A stretch of 19,831 bases of DNA from a filamentous cyanobacterium CCP2. Lineage in GTDB: Bacteria > Cyanobacteriota > Cyanobacteriia > Elainellales > Elainellaceae. This document shows positions 4,480-17,270 of the stretch, one piece after another (positions within the stretch are counted from its first letter, which is position 1; each line of letters begins with the position of its first letter). The DNA is taken from contig PVWD01000095.1 of assembly GCA_003003615.1 (NCBI GenBank), positions 1-19,831 on the forward strand, written 5' to 3'. The translations under genes were made by a program, and so were the position numbers. The notes under the pieces were generated by a model. That model worked only from the letters and a program-made list of their open reading frames with translations, was not told the DNA's origin and made no database searches.

Positions 4480-4689
4480 TGCGGGATAACACCCCTATGT
4501 TCCACGATTGTCCATCAGATCTGCGGGATAAAACCAGACTTTCAGGATTTAAACAGAAAAATTGATAGTTAAGTCTGGGGATTTGGGGTGTTATCCGTCA
4601 CATTTGATAGTTAAGTATGGAGATTCGGGTGCCTATCTGTCACTTTTGCTGGATAACATCCTTGATAACGGTATTATCCAGCATCTATC
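4480..4689. promoter_or_regulatory. Cluster of GGATAAC/GTTATCC motifs (repeat-rich att-like or operator-like region). It includes a 42-bp tandem imperfect repeat (4563..4604 and 4605..4646, about 36/42 identical) and a perfect palindrome GCTGGATAA-N17-TTATCCAGC (4648..4682). It lies immediately upstream of the recombinase remnant.
   Basis: Motifs read directly: GCGGGATAACACCCC (4481), GCGGGATAAAACC (4522), GGGGTGTTATCCGTCAC (4585, inverted relative to 4481), GCCTATCTGTCAC, CTGGATAACATCC, TTGATAACGG, GTATTATCCAGC. Each tandem unit carries GTTAAGT. Confidence 0.55.
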
Positions 4690-4830
4690 ATGTCGCAACC
4701 TCAACCGCCACGCCTGCTTGATCAAGTCCGGCGATCGATCCCTCTCAAGCACTTCAGCCTCAAAACTGAGAAATCTTGCGTTCACTACATTCGCGATTTC
4801 ATTCGCGGTAAATGTCATTCAAAGACATAG
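4690..4830 (+). pseudogene. N-terminal remnant (46 codons) of an IntI/XerD-like tyrosine recombinase (Phage_integr_N / PF13495-type SAM-like domain)
   Basis: MSQPQPPRLLDQVRRSIPLKHFSLKTEKSCVHYIRDFIRGKCHSKT* parallels the IntI1 N-terminus ...[33 protein letters not shown]. It ends at a stop after 46 codons. No downstream frame continues a recombinase catalytic domain. Confidence 0.6.
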
Positions 4831-4974
4831 GAGTAATCGTGTAAGAACTACTGAAGTGCAAAATCTAAGCAACGTCGTGCCTTGGCTACGTTTTTTCTTA
4901 ACCTGCAAACCATCGCCTATCTTTTCTGCGATCGCCTCAATCTGATCCACATCAGCTATGCCTGCCAAAAATTC

Positions 4975-5181
4975 TTACTCCGCCTCATCGTCACCCTTAA
5001 TCTGATCCAGGTTATGCCGATCGATCAATTCCCGAATTCGATCGGTTTGCAAGTATTCTTCCAACGCCTCATTGAAGAACTCAGATACAGAGACATTCAT
5101 CAAAGCTGCTAAGGCTTTGACCAGTACGCTTGTTTCAGGATCTAGATAGACTCTAACCTCTGGGTTACGTTTAGCGTTCAC
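4975..5181 (-). CDS. Small RHH (ribbon-helix-helix, CopG/ParD-like) putative DNA-binding or antitoxin protein. Orphan, with no adjacent toxin ORF.
   Basis: 68 aa. RVYLDPETSVLVKALAALMNVSVSEFFNEALEEYL fits the beta-strand plus two-helix RHH pattern. Its 3' 71 bp is duplicated at 3070..3140. Confidence 0.55.
   Translation of the reverse strand: MNAKRNPEVRVYLDPETSVLVKALAALMNVSVSEFFNEALEEYLQTDRIRELIDRHNLDQIKGDDEAE
4991..5061. repeat. Copy 2 of the 71-bp direct repeat, forming the 3' end of the RHH-like CDS
   Basis: 67/71 identity to 3070..3140. Same internal palindrome CCGATCGA-N13-TCGATCGG. Confidence 0.8.
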
Positions 5182-5276
5182 GCGATCGGGTTTGTAGATT
5201 TTTTTCCATACCCTATTGTCTGATATCGAGGTAGTGAGCTATCGTAGTATCGTACTGCCGTAATGACGTAAAACCT

Positions 5277-5408
5277 ATGCCGACCCTCTCCGATGATGAG
5301 TTCAACCTGATCCGCAAACTCCTCATGGACTTACGCTCCATCAAAACCTCCGATCTCGACAAAGCCCTTGCTATCCTGCATAAACGCAACAAACCCATTG
5401 ACCCCTAA
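5277..5408 (+). CDS. Small ORF A1 (43 aa) of a duplicated module. Paralogous to a 27-codon ORF at 8296..8379.
   Basis: MPTLSDDEFNLIRKLLMDLRSIKTSDLDKALAILHKRNKPIDP, against copy B MDLRSIKTSDLDKALAIMSKRTKTNDR. The coding status is uncertain and it could be a non-coding repeated element. Confidence 0.3.
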   Translation: MPTLSDDEFNLIRKLLMDLRSIKTSDLDKALAILHKRNKPIDP

Positions 5409-5600
5409 CCCATCAACCCCTGTACGGGCAAAGCATTGGCAGTGAGATGTATGAATCAAAATCAAAAGTTTCTATGCAAATGCTTCGCCCCTACCCGCGC
5501 AACCCCACAACCGATCGTCCTAAACCCGATCGCCCCTTTCATATGGAGAATTCACCATGCTGATTTTGAATGATGCTCAAGCGTTGATTGTGGAATCATT
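5323..5600. repeat. Copy A of a diverged ~250-bp direct repeat module. Copy B is 8294..8505. The two copies flank the NTPase and pentapeptide gene pair.
   Basis: A near-identical 45-bp core (GGACTTACGCTCCATCAAAACCTCCGATCTCGACAAAGCCCTTGC) occurs at 5328-5372 and 8299-8343. A second conserved block lies around the ATGCTGATTTTGAA start. Confidence 0.75.
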
Positions 5601-5748
5601 GCTGACCAAAATGTTGATTAACGATGCCTATTCGGTTGCCCAATTGGAAGAAGCGATCGGTTGGTTTCAGCAAAAACAAACTGTATCTTGCCCCTTTGAG
5701 CAAACCTGGAGTAGAAATCTGGCTGATGATAAAGATGAGCTGACATGA
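5557..5748 (+). CDS. Small ORF A2 (63 aa) of the duplicated module. Its first ~5 codons (MLILND) are paralogous to a 21-codon ORF at 8465..8530; the two diverge after that.
   Basis: MLILNDAQALIVESLL..., against copy B MLILNDVQALDEIVERLRKVC*. The leaders are conserved: CCCCTTTCATATGGAGAATTCACCATGCTGATTTTGAA versus CCCCTTTGATTTGGAGATTGACCATGCTGATTTTGAA. Confidence 0.3.
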   Translation: MLILNDAQALIVESLLTKMLINDAYSVAQLEEAIGWFQQKQTVSCPFEQTWSRNLADDKDELT

Positions 5749-5837
5749 CCCGCCTAGGGTCTTTTCAGAAACTGATTGAAAAACGATACTGAAACCTTAA
5801 ACTAGGGGAACTCCTCAATTCTCCCTTCCCCCTCCCC

Positions 5838-7310
5838 ATGCCCCTGGACATTCGCCAACTTAACCTGGGTTCCGATTCAGCCGAGCGCGATATCGCCATT
5901 GGACTATCCGAGTATTTCTATCAGAACTCCACCTATCACAAGTTTTTCGACAGCGGCAAAACCATCCTGGTCGGCAATCGGGGCAGCGGCAAAAGTGCCA
6001 TCTTCAAGTACATGGCAGCAGTGGAAGCCCGTAAAGGCAACCTCATCCTCGAATTGTCACCAGAGGAATACTCCTACGAACTATTATCGGAACATTTACG
6101 CAGTGAGAAGGAAGGCTCTTGGGGCAAGCAAAGCTCATACTCGGTCGCCTGGCAATATCTGCTCTATTGCCTCATTTTCAAGAAGATTGTAGAGGAAAAG
6201 CGGGGCTTATTACTGGGGAGTCAAAAGGATATTTTTACCTACGTCCAAAGCCATCTACAGAACCAAAATCTCCATTCCATCAGCATTCTTTTCAACTACT
6301 TGAAGCGGCTAGAGGAAATTAAGCTGGGTAGCCATCAAAGCTTACAGCGATCGCGCGAGCTTCAGAGTCTCTATAGTTTAGAAGAAATCAAGCAACTGCT
6401 GCCGAGCCTCAAAAAAGTATTGGGAAAGCTCAGAGTCAAAGTTTTTATTGATGAACTGGACAAAGGGTGGGATAACTCAGAAGATGCCAAATATTTTCTA
6501 GCTGGACTGTTTCAAGCTGCCCAAAAGCTCAATTTGATCAGCTCTAACTTAAAAATCTATATCTCGATTCGCCAGGAGCTATTTGATAACATTCCTCAAA
6601 TCTACGAAGATGCTCAGAAAATTCGTGAAGACGTAGAGGTGATTCGCTGGGGCAAAGCTGAACTCCTGGAGCTAATTGGACTACGGATTGCCCACTGCTT
6701 CCCGGAACTGCAACAGTCTAATGGTCTGCGCTGCTGGAATTCCATCTTTGTCTCCCAACTGCCCCTCCGCAGCGAAGAATCGATCGGCTCTACATCAGCA
6801 GATTACATCATCGATCGCACCCAACTTCGTCCCCGTGAACTCCTACAGTTTTGCAAACTCTGCATCGAGTACTATAACGGTGGCAAGCGGATTGAGGAAA
6901 ATACTATCTATGCGGCTGAAGAAGTTTATTCAGAACAAAAAATTAAAGATTTAGCCTCAGAATATCGCTTCAAATACCCTCATTTATTAGATCTATTTGA
7001 GGTGTTTCGGGGACATAAAAGCCACTACGAAAAAAATGATCTGGAGTATCTGCTACTGTCTATTGTTTGCGGTGAAGTTGATGTGGATCAGGCAGCATCC
7101 TGGGTGCAGGAACTCGACTACCTGGAACTAAAAAAACTGCTCTGGAATATCGGCTTTCTTAAAGCAAAGGTGCCTCGGCAAATGGGTCAAAACATTGGAG
7201 GCAAAGGTACTTTCTTTGGACACTATGAATTGCCAAGTATCAACCTGGAAAACGTTGAACACTTTTGCATCCACCCCGCTTTCTGCTACTTCCTGAGCCT
7301 CAAATCTTAG
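5838..7310 (+). CDS. P-loop NTPase, NACHT/STAND-like (or other AAA+-like), with a ~200-aa C-terminal helical domain and no fused repeat array
   Basis: 490 aa. Walker A KTILVGNRGSGKSAIFKYM, Walker B RVKVFIDELDKGWD (hhhhDE...D), a TSR-like sensor-1 KIYISIRQE, and a sensor-2-like RPRELLQF. Family assignment is from motifs only. The stop TAG directly abuts the downstream ORF. Confidence 0.8.
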   Translation: MPLDIRQLNLGSDSAERDIAIGLSEYFYQNSTYHKFFDSGKTILVGNRGSGKSAIFKYMAAVEARKGNLILELSPEEYSYELLSEHLRSEKEGSWGKQSSYSVAWQYLLYCLIFKKIVEEKRGLLLGSQKDIFTYVQSHLQNQNLHSISILFNYLKRLEEIKLGSHQSLQRSRELQSLYSLEEIKQLLPSLKKVLGKLRVKVFIDELDKGWDNSEDAKYFLAGLFQAAQKLNLISSNLKIYISIRQELFDNIPQIYEDAQKIREDVEVIRWGKAELLELIGLRIAHCFPELQQSNGLRCWNSIFVSQLPLRSEESIGSTSADYIIDRTQLRPRELLQFCKLCIEYYNGGKRIEENTIYAAEEVYSEQKIKDLASEYRFKYPHLLDLFEVFRGHKSHYEKNDLEYLLLSIVCGEVDVDQAASWVQELDYLELKKLLWNIGFLKAKVPRQMGQNIGGKGTFFGHYELPSINLENVEHFCIHPAFCYFLSLKS

Positions 7311-7376
7311 GTGCTGTTATGCGACAATTTGGTCATACTTTTAAGATTCCATCTAATCGCTATAGAGAGAACCAAT

Positions 7377-8189
7377 ATGCCATGGAACCCGCGAAAATTA
7401 ACGTGTACGCTAGAGTTAGTGGCCCAAAAGATCCCCACTTGGGTCGCCGTGTTGATATCAGTGGTGGGCCTTGCAACGATCGCCCTCTGGGTTCAGGAAG
7501 ATATCGTCATCCGTTCACCGCTTGATCTATTCCAACGCGATACCCTTAAAATTTTCTTTGAGAATGCTGAGTCGTTTGCGATCGTGGCAGCGGTGATTCT
7601 CTACTTCAAAGACGCACCCGATCGCAAAGCCAAGAAACACTACGAAGCGTGGAGTATTATTGACAATGCGGCTGCCGCCAAAGTTGCTACCAGTTACGCG
7701 CGCTTTCAGGCCCTTCAAGACCTCCATAAAGATGGGGTTGCACTTTGTGCTCTGGATGCTCCCCGCGCTAACCTGGCAAAAATTCAGCTCTCCGGTGCCC
7801 ACCTCAATGAGGCGAATTTGCCGGGGGCTGACCTGCGAGAAGCCTATCTGCACCGCTGCGACCTGTCCCAGGCGAATCTACAGGGAGCGAATCTGCAAAA
7901 GGCCAACCTCAAAGGGGCGAACCTGCGTGGAGCGAATCTGCAAGAAGCCAATTTGCGTGATGCCAATCTAAGTGGGGCTGATCTGCGGGAAGCGAATTTA
8001 CGGGGAGCCAACTTACGCAATGCGGAACTCTGGAAATCCCAGTTTTTGGGTGCTGATTTGGAGGATGCAGAACTGAAGTGGGCCGAGCTTCAGGGTGCTG
8101 AACTATACGGGGCAAGGCTGCACCGCACAGTGATGCCCGATGGTAGTTTAGAACAGCAGGAAATTGAGCTTTGGAGCCACTTCCTGTAG
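7377..8189 (+). CDS. Membrane-anchored pentapeptide-repeat protein. Alternative GTG start at 7311 directly abuts the NTPase stop.
   Basis: Two hydrophobic helices (IPTWVAVLISVVGLATIALWV; SFAIVAAVILYF) followed by about 25 A(D/N)LxG-type pentapeptide repeats (ANLQGANLQKANLKGANLRGANLQEANLRDANLSGADLREANLRGANL...). Confidence 0.85.
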   Translation: MPWNPRKLTCTLELVAQKIPTWVAVLISVVGLATIALWVQEDIVIRSPLDLFQRDTLKIFFENAESFAIVAAVILYFKDAPDRKAKKHYEAWSIIDNAAAAKVATSYARFQALQDLHKDGVALCALDAPRANLAKIQLSGAHLNEANLPGADLREAYLHRCDLSQANLQGANLQKANLKGANLRGANLQEANLRDANLSGADLREANLRGANLRNAELWKSQFLGADLEDAELKWAELQGAELYGARLHRTVMPDGSLEQQEIELWSHFL

Positions 8190-8293
8190 GAAAGATGAAA
8201 TTGTGCGACAACTGCGATCGGGGATTTGAAGCGAGAGTACAGATTCTTAAGACCATGAGGGCACAGCTTACCGAAAGTGCCAAACTAAAGTTG

Positions 8294-8505
8294 ATATGGA
8301 CTTACGCTCCATCAAAACCTCCGATCTCGACAAAGCCCTTGCCATCATGAGCAAACGGACTAAAACAAACGATCGCTGACTGGGCGGGCAAGATGCCCAC
8401 CCCACAAGAAGTTAGGCAGACAAGATGTTAATACAAGCCCACCCCTTTGATTTGGAGATTGACCATGCTGATTTTGAACGATGTCCAAGCATTGGATGAA
8501 ATTGT
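8294..8505. repeat. Copy B of the diverged direct repeat module. It carries the short ORFs 8296..8379 and 8465..8530.
   Basis: See copy A. Its central part is shortened and diverged. Confidence 0.75.
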
Positions 8506-8665
8506 CGAGCGACTGCGAAAAGTCTGCTGAATCAAATTGAGAAAGAGAAATGATTTCATTGAAAATGAATCGATCGGCTAACTCTCAACTGATTCGCAGA
8601 TAGTTTAATGCATTAGTCAACTCAGTAAAATTTACAGGTTTCTGTTACGGATTACCAAGAAACGA

Positions 8666-10482: not shown

Positions 10483-11184
10483 TTGATGGACGGTAAACAT
10501 ATTTTGTTGACGGGCGGTACAGGTGGGCTGGGGTCTGGTGTGGTGCCGATCGCCCTGTCCCAAGGAGCCGCTTCCTTAACGATTCCCTATGTCAAACCGA
10601 AGGAAGTAGAGCGGTTGCAGAACTCAGTCAGTTCGGCAGATTTGGAGCGAATTCACTTTGTAGAAGCCGATTTAATGGATGAGCGATCGGTTGAACGTTT
10701 GGTAAACAGCATGGAGCGGGTGGATGCGGCCATTCATTTGGTAGGCGGCTTTTCGATGGGCAAAACCCATGAATATGGCTACGACCAATGGCAAAAGGAT
10801 TTTCAGCTAAACCTGGGCACGGCATTTCTCATTTGTAAGCACAGCCTGCGACGGATGCTTGACCGGGGCTATGGGCGGATTGTGACGATCGGTTCTCGTG
10901 GAGCAGTGGAGCCAGGCGGACAACTCGCAGCATACTGTGCGTCTAAGGCGGGCGTTGTGGCCCTGACTCGATCGATCGCGGATGAAACCAAGGGAACTAA
11001 TATTACTGCCAATGTGGTGCTGCCCAGCGTCATTGACACGCCTGCCAACCGTGAGGCCATGGGAGCGGAAAATGCCGATCGGTGGGTAAAGCCTGAATCG
11101 TTAGGGCAAGTTATTTGCTTTCTGGCTTCTGAGGCAGCAAAGGATCTGCGGGGGGCTGTGGTTCCGGTTTATGGCAGTGCGTAG
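10483..11184 (+). CDS. Short-chain dehydrogenase/reductase (SDR) family oxidoreductase
   Basis: TGGTGGLG nucleotide-binding motif, catalytic YCASK, PSVIDTP. 233 aa. Confidence 0.9.
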   Translation: MMDGKHILLTGGTGGLGSGVVPIALSQGAASLTIPYVKPKEVERLQNSVSSADLERIHFVEADLMDERSVERLVNSMERVDAAIHLVGGFSMGKTHEYGYDQWQKDFQLNLGTAFLICKHSLRRMLDRGYGRIVTIGSRGAVEPGGQLAAYCASKAGVVALTRSIADETKGTNITANVVLPSVIDTPANREAMGAENADRWVKPESLGQVICFLASEAAKDLRGAVVPVYGSA

Positions 11185-12169
11185 CTTCTGATAGGGGCCT
11201 GCCTGTTCCCCCTCGCCTCACCATGATTAGCTCAGCCCCAATGCTGATGGCAATTTCTTCCGGCGTTAAAGCCCCAATATCTAGCCCAATGGGAGCATAA
11301 ACCGATCGCAGTGCTTCTACGGGAATGCCTGCTGCTTCGATCGCCTGAAACACTTGCTTTACTCGCCGTTCGCTGCCAATCATGCCAATATACCGGCAGG
11401 GTGGATCGCGCTGGAGGAGGGCAGTGAGGGCAGCCAAATCATGCTGATAGCCTCGCGTGACAAGGGCGGCATACAGTTGAGTTTGTTGAACAAGCTGGGT
11501 AACGGTTGCAGCAATGGGTTCAGTAAAAATCTGGCTGGCTTGAGGATAGCGTTGGGAATTGGCCCATTCCGGGCGATCGTCTTGGACAGCAACCTGAAAC
11601 CCAATCTGAGCCGCAACTGCCGCAAGCTGAATGCCCACATGCCCTGCACCAACAATGAGCAGCATCGGAGGAGGATACAGCGTTTCAATGAAGGCGTGGG
11701 TGGAATGGGGAACGGGAGCATCGGCAATGTAAGGAGGGTTGGCATCGAAGGGTGTCACCAGGGTAACGGGCTGCCCTGACTCAAGCTGTTGAAGGATTCG
11801 CTGAATCAAGCCGATCGCCCCTTTGCTCGCTCCATTCTCATCCGTCCAGCGTTCCAGCCAAACCTGCATCGTACCACCGCAAATCCCTTCTGTGGGGAAG
11901 CTTGTAGAGCGATCGGCTCTGGTTGTTCCAGTGAGGTTAATTTCGACAAACTGTTTTTGTCCCGTTTCCAACACCGCCCTTGCCTGACGAATTACTTTTG
12001 CTTCTCCTGCCCCACCCCCAATGGTGTTGAACGTTTGCCCATCCCCACAAATCACCATTTTTGCCCCCACTTCTCTGGGCACAGAACCCCGAACTGCCGT
12101 CACCGTCGCCAGAACGGCCATACCATGATGCAACACGTCAGCCAGATAGCGATAGCAGTCAAGGGACAT
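11111..12169 (-). CDS. XdhC/CoxI family protein (xanthine dehydrogenase accessory / Mo-cofactor insertion-like)
   Basis: N-terminal XdhC_CoxI-like region (AVLATVTAVRGSVPREVGAKMVI) and a Rossmann XdhC_C region (LLIVGAGHVGIQLAAVAAQIGFQVAVQDDRPE). The 3' end overlaps the convergent SDR gene by about 74 bp, so the C-terminal low-complexity tail may be over-called. Confidence 0.85.
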   Translation of the reverse strand: MSLDCYRYLADVLHHGMAVLATVTAVRGSVPREVGAKMVICGDGQTFNTIGGGAGEAKVIRQARAVLETGQKQFVEINLTGTTRADRSTSFPTEGICGGTMQVWLERWTDENGASKGAIGLIQRILQQLESGQPVTLVTPFDANPPYIADAPVPHSTHAFIETLYPPPMLLIVGAGHVGIQLAAVAAQIGFQVAVQDDRPEWANSQRYPQASQIFTEPIAATVTQLVQQTQLYAALVTRGYQHDLAALTALLQRDPPCRYIGMIGSERRVKQVFQAIEAAGIPVEALRSVYAPIGLDIGALTPEEIAISIGAELIMVRRGGTGRPLSEATHCHKPEPQPPADPLLPQKPESK

Positions 12170-16433: not shown

Positions 16434-17270
16434 ATGTACGACAACGTTTGCAAATTTCTTGCCGAAAGCTACAGTCAGGACTTTGCCCAGTGGTTACTCG
16501 GAGAACCGATCGGCTTGACCCAACTCAGTCCCTCTGAGTTGTCCGTGGCACCGATTCGGGCGGATGCGCTAATTCTGCTGGATTCTGAACAAGTGGTGCT
16601 GCATCTGGAATTCCAAACTCGTCCTGATGCCAGCATTCCCTTTCGCCTAGCAGATTATCGCCTGCGGGTCTATCGTCGGTATCCAAACAAGCAAATGCGT
16701 CAGGTGGTGCTTTACCTCAAGCCCACAGAATCAGAGCTAGTGCATCAAACGGTGTTTGAAATTTCAGGAATGCGCCATGCGTTTGAAGTGATTCGCCTGT
16801 GGGAAGTCCCTGCCGCAGAGCTGCTCCAGTTTCCAGGATTATTACCCCTGGCAGTGCTGAGTCGGGCTGAGGATAAAGTTCAGACTCTTCAGCAAATTGC
16901 CCAGCAGATTGACACCTTGCCAGAGCAGGAAACGAAAAGCAACGTCGCAGCCGCAACTTCGGTGCTAGCAGGATTAGTATTGGAGAAGGCAGTGATTCGA
17001 CAAATTTTGCGGGAGGAGATCGTGAAAGATTCGGTGATCTATCAAGACATCCTGGAACAAGGACTCCAGCAAGGACTCCAACAGGGAGCGCAAGCGGGAG
17101 AAGCCACGTTGGTGTTGCGGCTTGTGAAGCGTCGATTGGGTGATCCGGGACAAGAGGTAGAAACACGGATTCGATCGCTCTCGGTTGACCAATTAGAAGC
17201 CTTGGGCGAAGCCCTGTTGGACTTCACGCAGCCAGAAGAGTTAACAACTTGGTTAGAAGACCATGCATAA
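16434..17270 (+). CDS. Rpn-family recombination-promoting nuclease/putative transposase (PD-(D/E)xK N-terminus plus DUF4351 C-terminus)
   Basis: RADALILL...VVLHLEFQ nuclease core; the C-terminal DUF4351-like ...EATLVLRLVKRRLGD...IRSLSVDQLEALGEALLDF. Multi-copy family in cyanobacteria. Confidence 0.8.
   Translation: MYDNVCKFLAESYSQDFAQWLLGEPIGLTQLSPSELSVAPIRADALILLDSEQVVLHLEFQTRPDASIPFRLADYRLRVYRRYPNKQMRQVVLYLKPTESELVHQTVFEISGMRHAFEVIRLWEVPAAELLQFPGLLPLAVLSRAEDKVQTLQQIAQQIDTLPEQETKSNVAAATSVLAGLVLEKAVIRQILREEIVKDSVIYQDILEQGLQQGLQQGAQAGEATLVLRLVKRRLGDPGQEVETRIRSLSVDQLEALGEALLDFTQPEELTTWLEDHA

Follow-up and report, generated by a model that had tools for sequence, protein, structure and literature searches.

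The nearest described case of a nucleoside triphosphatase (NTPase) that works with a pentapeptide-repeat protein is the mycobacterial mfp conservon, where MfpB binds and modulates MfpA, the pentapeptide protein of the same operon (PMC3575795). MfpB belongs to the small Ras-like GTPases; its partner MfpA is a soluble protein with gyrase as its target. In bacterial NACHT proteins, pentapeptide arrays are known besides as sensor modules at the C-terminus (bioRxiv 10.1101/2022.07.19.500537). The cyanobacterial pentapeptide-repeat (Rfr) proteins, such as HetL, Np275/276 and Rfr23/32, have a right-handed quadrilateral beta-helix. Two large AAA+-type ATPases, BrxC of BREX and RdrA of RADAR, belong to anti-phage systems, and the AAA+ NTPases of ORC/Cdc6 and STAND type comprise such proteins as Cdc6/Orc1, the archaeal Sso1545/PAB2304 and NB-ARC/NACHT/Avs. 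The NCBIfam family NF047389, "P-loop ATPase, Sll1717 family", whose namesake is Sll1717 of Synechocystis sp. PCC 6803, is named and mechanistically uncharacterised. We analysed a stretch of 19,831 nucleotides (contig PVWD01000095.1, assembly GCA_003003615.1; "the window" hereafter) from the filamentous cyanobacterium CCP2, which carries two adjacent genes: gene A (5838-7310, + strand), coding for a predicted Sll1717-family AAA+ (ORC/Cdc6-STAND-like) ATPase of 490 amino acids (aa), and gene B (7377-8189, + strand), coding for a membrane-anchored pentapeptide-repeat protein of 270 aa. As this adjacency is kept by over 60 species of cyanobacteria with thin filaments, A and B very probably work together. 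Our preferred reading, held tentatively and with less than even confidence, is that they form a functionally coupled two-gene operon, which arose when, in one lineage of cyanobacteria, a pentapeptide protein tethered to the membrane was added as partner to a mobile ATPase switch of the conflict type. The family of A was already named and the repeat family of B already known; what appears to be new here is the conserved partnership, together with the family-wide picture of the Sll1717 ATPases.

The pairing of A and B

The loci were taken from one genome per species: there were 230 relatives, and 80 of the 230 loci were kept. The pairing was scored with the non-repeat N-terminal 125 residues of B as query, and the result is therefore independent of the repeats. 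Of the 66 cyanobacterial loci which had room for it, 64 have this N-terminal domain directly downstream of A, on the same strand and at a distance of 14-272 bp. The two exceptions are L016, where A is intact and B absent, and L062, where A is frameshifted and B absent. When the open reading frames (ORFs) around A are clustered, only A and B are common across the clades, all the other neighbours of A being replaced. The pairwise distances of A follow those of B closely (r = 0.89, reached in 0/999 Mantel permutations), with B as the faster-evolving of the two (mean pairwise distances 0.44 vs 0.26, slope 1.39). The closest relative of A lies in Egbenema sp. FJBBOT/2019 (locus L001), with 98% identity in protein and about 92% in DNA; measured against this copy, A has a Ka/Ks of 0.044 and B one of 0.070. 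Both genes are under strong purifying selection. An earlier sequence-only reading of this DNA had made conserved co-occurrence one test of its proposal, and the proposal came through it with the counts and the Mantel result just given.

Pentapeptide genes are very abundant in cyanobacteria (6380 matches at E <= 1e-10 among 8000 candidates scored with full-length B as query), and the Leptothoe clade has another, unrelated gene for a soluble pentapeptide protein close by, so that one could imagine a common cyanobacterial gene which happens to stand beside an unrelated ATPase gene. Such a fortuitous adjacency is effectively refuted by the fact that it is the orthologous B, identified by its non-repeat N-terminal domain, which keeps the same position and orientation in nearly all the loci while other neighbours turn over, and by the co-divergence of A and B.

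The ORF of B can be read from a GTG at 7311 (7311-8189, + strand), and all orthologues start at the methionine at 7377 (MxW...). Because of this common start, the real gap between A and B, which had been put at 0-66 bp on the same strand, is at the upper end of that range: the spacer occupies 7311-7376 (+ strand), that is 66 bp, within the range seen in the 64 related loci. Neither a promoter-like nor a terminator-like site was found between A and B. Upstream of A, at a distance of 35 nt, there is a promoter-like site (5776-5803, + strand: TTGAAA, a 16 nt spacer, TAAACT), which is a consensus match only, the count of such sites in the region being not above that in shuffled sequences. The arrangement suggests that A and B are co-transcribed as an operon.

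Outside the clade, A is found by itself. Homologues of the same length and of 41-59% identity occur without B in all 13 loci examined (13/13). Ten of these loci, at 41-49% identity, are non-cyanobacterial (Verrucomicrobiota, Acidobacteriota, Binatia, Planctomycetota, Actinoallomurus, Burkholderiaceae, Spirochaetota) and none of them has a pentapeptide neighbour; the same is true of three further homologues (59%, 56% and 49%). The membrane-pentapeptide pairing lies outside the definition of NF047389 and is restricted to one cyanobacterial clade. Because A-type proteins of unchanged length stand alone in all of these loci outside the clade, A is not an incomplete module: judged from its homologues, it is a complete unit which gained B in one lineage, and not a STAND protein split in two.

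The two proteins

A is a full-length member of NF047389, with 290.2 bits for a cut-off of 75 and a match running end to end (residues 10-486 of A on profile positions 1-454 of 454). Its best Pfam match, ORC-CDC6-like (PF24389), has 24.9 bits and falls just below the cut-off of 27. In the alignment of A with its homologues (53 sequences, identity down to 42%), the three motifs which the sequence-only reading had picked out in this 490-aa P-loop NTPase are all present and (nearly) invariant. These are the Walker A motif GNRGSGKS (residues 46-53; 5973-5996, + strand), with G46, R48, G49, G51 and K52 invariant; the Walker B motif VFIDELDKGWD (residues 202-212; 6441-6473, + strand), with D205, E206, L207, D208, G210 and D212 invariant, following strand 200-204 of the structural model; and the sensor-2-like arginine motif RPRELL (residues 331-336; 6828-6845, + strand), with R331, P332, R333 and E334 invariant, at the start of the lid helix (332-345 in the model). 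About 70 other positions are invariant as well. A TSR-like sensor-1 had also been announced. We found no literal TSR; the likely sensor-1 position is the ISIR which ends model strand 238-245, where S243 and R245 are conserved.

The AlphaFold model of A is confident (pLDDT 87.8, pTM 0.87). Between Walker A and Walker B it shows a long helical insert (residues 97-195), and its C-terminal part (residues 417-486; 7086-7295, + strand) has helices at 417-438 and strands at 441-478, with W422, W436, G439, F440 and H479 invariant. From this pattern of secondary structure we would assign a winged-helix-like domain. In a comparison of folds a plant NB-ARC scores 11.6 and BrxC 11.4, followed by TnsC and DnaA, and CED-4, NLRP3 and Avs score 9.6-10.3; Foldseek ranks BrxC and RdrA on top (E 5e-5 and 6e-4, TM-scores 0.31-0.37). 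The identity of A to any solved structure is at most 13%, and a sequence profile of the 53 homologues run against the PDB gave P-loop noise only (E >= 0.07). By its predicted fold, A is an AAA+ ATPase from the neighbourhood of the ORC/Cdc6 and STAND proteins, and its C-terminal domain is winged-helix-like. At this level the name "STAND-like" is fair, and "NACHT-like" is not: PF05729 (NACHT) gives no match to A even at E <= 1. We therefore rejected the NACHT membership proposed earlier, the named Sll1717 family fitting instead.

A and its 120 best homologues measure about 485-520 aa and have no extra domain, nor any fused effector or sensor repeats; the absence of a fused repeat array from the NTPase had been rightly noticed. 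In this, as in the lack of a NACHT match and in the long helical insert, A differs from the ORC/Cdc6 and STAND NTPases cited above. The partners of BrxC and RdrA in their own systems (PglZ, BrxB, PglX, RdrB) are found neither in the window nor in the related loci. Because the Walker A and B motifs, the sensor-1 position and the RPRE of the arginine motif are invariant, because the model is confident and because homologues of the same length stand alone, A is to be judged an intact P-loop ATPase and, probably, an active, autonomous switch.

B matches the Pfam family Pentapeptide (PF00805) with 138.2 bits for a cut-off of 20.2. Its AlphaFold model (pLDDT 79.7) has helices at 21-39 and 64-100 and a short helix at 107-118, and after these, between residue 127 and about residue 250, a strand recurs every 5 residues, which amounts to about 24 repeats. 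Three parts can be distinguished. The first is a transmembrane hairpin (7434-7607, + strand), made of TM1 (residues 20-39), a loop and TM2 (residues 64-77), both helices having a mean hydropathy of 2.3. The second is a juxtamembrane module, KxAPDRKAQKHYEAWxxIDxAA...SYARxxALxDLHxDG (residues 78-125; 7608-7751, + strand), which is the most conserved part of B. The third is the pentapeptide beta-helix itself (residues 127 to about 250; 7755-8126, + strand), recognised by PF00805, by its assignment to repeat family D1, by the model and by its fold match. Hence the two transmembrane helices and the roughly 25 repeats of the earlier reading were well seen. The number of repeats varies by only one 20-residue block between clades. 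Over 63 orthologues the N-terminal stretch preceding TM1 has a net charge of +2.4, the loop one of -1.8 and the segment that follows TM2 one of +1.7. On the positive-inside rule this pattern would place both ends of B inside (N-in/C-in), with the repeat domain in the cytoplasm, on the same side as A.

B-like proteins of 46-53% identity in Halotia, Oculatella and another genome have no Sll1717-type ATPase nearby, and these paralogues without A keep the same transmembrane hairpin and the KxAPDRKAQKHYEAW...SYAR...AL.DL module. B is the only subfamily which we found linked to such an ATPase. In Halotia branconii (L081, 3506-6020) the B-like paralogue lies directly 3' of a gene for a 423-aa protein with an EndoU_bacteria domain, in a region with Uma2 and PIN genes. 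B can also be aligned collinearly with the phage family phrog_12514 from TM2 onward (residues 67-246 with 66-244 of 287); among the proteins of isolated phage genomes, B finds matches through its repeats only, none covering >=80%.

It had been proposed that A and B are the halves of a split STAND protein. In an abortive-infection version of this proposal, A would be the nucleotide-binding oligomerisation module, and B would combine a sensor, its pentapeptide array, with an effector, a hairpin which disrupts the membrane when clustered. The strict pairing and the co-divergence of A and B agree with it, as do the use of pentapeptide arrays as C-terminal sensors of NACHT proteins (bioRxiv 10.1101/2022.07.19.500537) and some sub-threshold nSTAND1/3 matches among relatives of A. 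The solo proteins of the same length and motifs outside the clade speak against it, however, and so does a scan of the family, in which pentapeptide repeats and transmembrane segments were found in 0 of 150 representatives and in 0/10 extended members. A has no NACHT match, the whole architecture of B recurs in paralogues without A, and B evolves slowly, unlike typical sensor arrays, with the single 20-residue block as the difference between clades. We consider a split STAND system improbable. Homologues that regularly form a single fused protein of known function had been named as evidence against the pair; no fused ATPase-pentapeptide protein was found among the homologues.

The fold of B raises the question of a kinship with MfpA. 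Foldseek retrieves HetL, Np275/276, QnrB1 and MfpA at E values of 1e-10 to 1e-7, and the likeness to the Qnr/MfpA beta-helix that had been put forward stands at the level of fold. At the level of family it does not: B scores 41.6 vs 240 for Qnr, 48.3 vs 360 for MfpA and 86.6 vs 260 for HetL, below each equivalog cut-off, and membership in Qnr/MfpA was rejected. With respect to HetL, Np275/276 and Rfr23/32, B adds the conserved hairpin and the juxtamembrane module. One could still suppose that the beta-helix of B mimics DNA on a topoisomerase or another DNA-binding enzyme and that A loads or regulates B; the NTPase-pentapeptide partnership documented in one operon (PMC3575795) offers a precedent, and in one Acidobacteriota genome a solo homologue of A with a BrnT gene upstream is found between gyrB and gyrA. 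That case is a single locus and has no B. Moreover, its membrane anchor sets B apart from Qnr and MfpA, A is an AAA+ protein of 490 aa instead of a Ras-like GTPase, and neither Roadblock/MglB nor any other conservon gene was found in the window. These differences, added to the low equivalog scores, make an MfpB/MfpA-like mechanism very improbable.

Genomic surroundings

The earlier reading had placed the pair in an island of the kind that usually holds defence modules. In cyanobacteria the flanks of A-B are instead housekeeping genes (xdhABC, RNase II, an ABC transporter, MutY), conserved within sub-clades. In the Nodosilinea-type clade the order is HD, xdhA, xdhB, A, B, xdhC. In the Leptothoe/Adonisia clade it is CNNM/CBS, ABC ATPase, secreted repeat protein, A, B, soluble pentapeptide gene, methyltransferase, RNase II. 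The Phormidesmis clade has a third arrangement, which includes a polynucleotide kinase-phosphatase gene. Compared within sub-clades, A shows the same degree of conservation as RNase II, XdhB or the ABC ATPase, and its divergence correlates with that of these genes (r 0.54-0.98). Because the neighbours are housekeeping genes and A evolves as slowly as they do, A-B does not lie in a defence island in cyanobacteria; it has the marks of an operon which is passed on stably and vertically under strong constraint, and not those of an island with fast turnover.

The soluble pentapeptide gene of the Leptothoe/Adonisia clade codes for a 312-aa repeat protein without membrane anchor and lies 3' of B on the same strand (L028, L031, L033-L035, L037, L038, L042-L046, L050, L054, L061, L064; e.g. 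L031, 8690-9628).

There are also signs of movement. In the Nodosilinea-type clade, where A-B stands between xdhB and xdhC (L005-L011, L015, L017, L018, L060; e.g. L017, 1902-9000), the GC content at third codon positions (GC3) is about 0.44-0.59 in A and 0.41-0.56 in B (about 0.48 for the pair) vs 0.61-0.78 (about 0.70) in the neighbours. With a GC3 below that of the xdh genes, A-B looks like an insertion into their operon. The window keeps xdhC (11111-12169, - strand) 3 kb from A-B and in the opposite orientation. The total GC content of A is below that of its flanks in 62 of 64 loci. We rejected this as a proof of recent transfer, for it reflects mostly a constant GC at second codon positions (GC2) of 0.32, that is the amino-acid composition, and GC3 deviates in some clades only.

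The diverged direct repeats reported around the pair were recovered: 5325-5409 matches 8296-8380 with 82% identity over 85 nt, and 5550-5586 matches 8458-8494 with 86% over 37 nt. They are copies of a multi-copy small unit of two ORFs. The upstream copy (5277-5748, + strand) contains a 43-aa ORF (5277-5408) and a 63-aa ORF (5557-5748), neither of which has a family in Pfam, PADLOC or PHROGs. The downstream copy is partial (8194-8518, + strand) and begins 5 nt past the stop codon of B with the 27-mer GATGAAATTGTGCGACAACTGCGATCG (8194-8220), the 3' tail of the small ORF. The 63-aa ORF is homologous to an uninterrupted ORF of Egbenema L001 (about 1785-1905), situated 4 kb upstream of A-B there, and it is the 3' tail of this L001 ORF that recurs in the window, at 8194-8229. 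In L001 itself, where small-unit stretches occupy 1654-1951, 5396-5879 and 8500-8526, A-B is enclosed by two perfect copies of a direct repeat of 27 nt, GATGAAATTGTGCGGCAACTGCGATCG (5846-5872 and 8500-8526). The window and L001 keep their 92% or so of identity across A-B, and both flanks differ. This pattern fits recombination among multi-copy small elements around A-B; by itself it is no proof that the pair is a mobile element.

The rest of the window contains genes for SPFH, TrkA_C, SnoaL, RHH, MutY, DUF760, SDR, XdhC, Tex, LuxR-GAF, DJ-1 and DUF4351 proteins and for a GAF histidine kinase. A PADLOC scan of these neighbours gave nothing meaningful, only generic domain matches (e.g. MutY to a NUDIX model), and scans of the window for Rfam families and tRNAs came out empty. 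The SPFH/Band 7 gene (1662-2930, - strand; 422 aa) has a GC content of 0.38-0.40 vs about 0.50 in the window, is compositionally foreign and has no PADLOC match. An RHH (CopG-type) ORF of 68 aa (4975-5181, - strand; RHH_1 at 22.1 bits for a cut-off of 20.5) lies just upstream of the repeated small-ORF unit, and no toxin-like partner was recognised beside it. As parts of the supposed island, the RHH gene and the low-GC SPFH gene can be retained; a recombinase remnant and a foreign cassette were not found, and the ORFs in 4500-5300 of the window have no family match. Farther away, at 16434-17270 (+ strand), a 278-aa protein ends in a DUF4351 domain, which we take to be typical of Rpn-family recombination-promoting nuclease/transposase-like cyanobacterial proteins.

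The Sll1717 family and the role of the pair

An exhaustive profile search gives about 490 clusters at 50% identity for the family of A (E <= 1e-30), plus thousands of remoter relatives. Homologues already named Sll1717 family in the database occur in Nodosilinea, Sphaerothrix, Leptothoe and Actinoallomurus, and the representatives are mostly 480-505 aa long. The family is patchy, horizontally transferred across at least 8 phyla and of atypical GC content. Several solo homologues have neighbours which are not those of a housekeeping gene: a C5 (Dcm) DNA methylase and an HNH nuclease in L068, a ThsB-type TIR protein in L073, a Cas1 homologue and transposases in L078, a DDE transposase and a resolvase in L086. 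In the Acidobacteriota locus mentioned above (L072, 5383-7482), a BrnT-type toxin gene, a small partner ORF and the solo ATPase are inserted together between gyrB and gyrA, with BrnT directly upstream of the ATPase. Solo homologues are far below the GC content of their hosts (in L072, 0.44 for the ATPase vs 0.66 for the flanks). The sole homologue on a viral contig (L090, 3998-7428; IMG/VR UViG_2806310405_000003) has 41% identity, is solo and lies 1 kb from a prophage integrase, with a small terminase subunit and a DNA methyltransferase nearby. Like A of the window (9.5e-36), it matches phrog_13260, a phage family of unassigned function. In isolated phage genomes we found no homologue of A, and on plasmids only remote relatives (24-27% identity), one of which, in Nostoc, lies among HerA-like, NurA, DUF3696 and HNH genes.

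A few members carry extra domains (P0248/P0253, P0246, P0331, P0340/P0338/P0321). A REC-fused member has 39% identity to A over its full length and a member with a CHAT-like N-terminus 38%, both being collinear with A. Among remoter relatives there are proteins with a TIR-like N-terminus and others with vWA/TerY-like domains, which stand N-terminally in P0321 and C-terminally in P0338 and P0340. A sub-threshold NPHP3_N match was obtained for one distant relative. Some ten other family members, of the 563-579 aa class, are extended at the N-terminus by about 95 aa of unexplained nature. Among defence profiles, PADLOC PDC-M28C and mad8 and the NCBIfam anti-phage protein DS41_1 give weak collinear matches to the ATPase core, of 1e-6 for A and of down to 1e-12 for relatives in the region from Walker B to sensor-1; these matches are partial (80-140 residues) and far under the family level. 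The contexts and fusions fit what one would expect of modular NTPases of conflict systems; they are no proof of defence. This family-wide evidence keeps a defence-type role open. A-B may be an undescribed two-gene anti-phage or abortive-infection system, the solo Sll1717 ATPases, including phrog_13260 on prophages, then being a new and widespread single-gene defence family, and B having been gained as a sensor, decoy or effector partner; this is possible, and on balance rather unlikely. That the pair resembles no described defence system, as had been claimed, agrees with the absence of any PADLOC system match.

The neighbourhood of the pair in cyanobacteria invites a physiological explanation, in which A would be an ATP-dependent regulator at the thylakoid or plasma membrane, for instance of respiratory or photosynthetic electron transport, B its membrane receptor or adaptor, and the whole a vertically inherited, clade-specific operon. 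In its favour are the stable position among housekeeping genes, a conservation of A equal to or above that of its flanking genes (with the r of 0.54-0.98), the purifying selection on both genes and the GC3 of A, which both in the window and in the Leptothoe clade is the same as in the genes beside it; membrane-anchored pentapeptide proteins with the same N-terminal module form a large cyanobacterial family in ordinary contexts. It is less at ease with a family so patchy, so often transferred and so atypical in GC, with solo homologues that stand among mobile or defence genes and on a prophage, with CHAT-like, TIR-like and vWA fusions of the kind seen in conflict systems, and with the foreign GC3 of A-B where the xdh operon is interrupted. 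Near-identical motif sets are found in non-photosynthetic bacteria, and the core activity of A is therefore not specific to thylakoids. We regard a purely physiological module as unlikely, while keeping it in serious consideration.

In the coupled, conflict-derived operon which we favour, A would be a complete, catalytically competent AAA+ switch from a horizontally mobile family which behaves like the NTPases of biological conflicts. B would be a lineage-specific accessory, recruited in the ancestor of one thin-filamentous clade (Egbenema, Nodosilinea, Leptothoe, Phormidesmis and relatives), held in the membrane by its two-helix hairpin and directing its rod-like beta-helix into the cytoplasm. 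Either the juxtamembrane module or the beta-helix may serve as a docking or mimic surface for A. B would then hold or regulate A at the membrane, and the switching or oligomerisation which A undergoes in dependence on ATP would be linked to an output close to the membrane. Both the physical contact between A and B and a conflict or defence purpose of the pair are what we infer.

Several points weigh against this preference. Housekeeping flanks, a position stable across up to 15 species and a conservation of A like that of RNase II, XdhB and the ABC ATPase are unusual for defence sensors. PADLOC-DB 2.0 gives weak partial matches for A, the best being PDC-M28C with 25.9 bits over 80 residues, and none for B, and no toxic effector domain is recognisable in either protein. 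The fusion proteins are single metagenomic sequences, and their CHAT and TIR matches are weak or below threshold (PADLOC 2.5e-6; Pfam 23.8 bits for a cut-off of 24.7). Fourteen positions are fixed in the B-linked clade and different in the 10 solo homologues; they are spread over all the domains of A and cluster on none, so that no surface for binding B emerged from them. Finally, Kufryk and Vermaas reportedly linked the Sll1717 protein of Synechocystis to plastoquinol oxidation in 2006, a suppressor mutation in sll1717 being said to alter quinol-oxidase activity and the redox state of the plastoquinone pool, which would point to physiology rather than defence. To our knowledge this is the only experimental report on the family; a full-text literature search on Sll1717 returned no match.

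If the pair is a working unit, it would give a first handle on the Sll1717 family, which horizontal transfer has spread over many phyla and prophages, and a handle on the membrane-anchored pentapeptide proteins of cyanobacteria, almost none of which has a known partner or role. It would also add to MfpB-MfpA a second case in which an NTPase controls a pentapeptide protein of beta-helical fold. Should the defence reading be true, the pair would represent a new type of system with an unusual membrane-tethered repeat component; should the physiological one be true, it would represent the domestication of a mobile conflict-type ATPase. The conserved ATPase partner makes one subfamily of membrane-anchored pentapeptide proteins directly testable.

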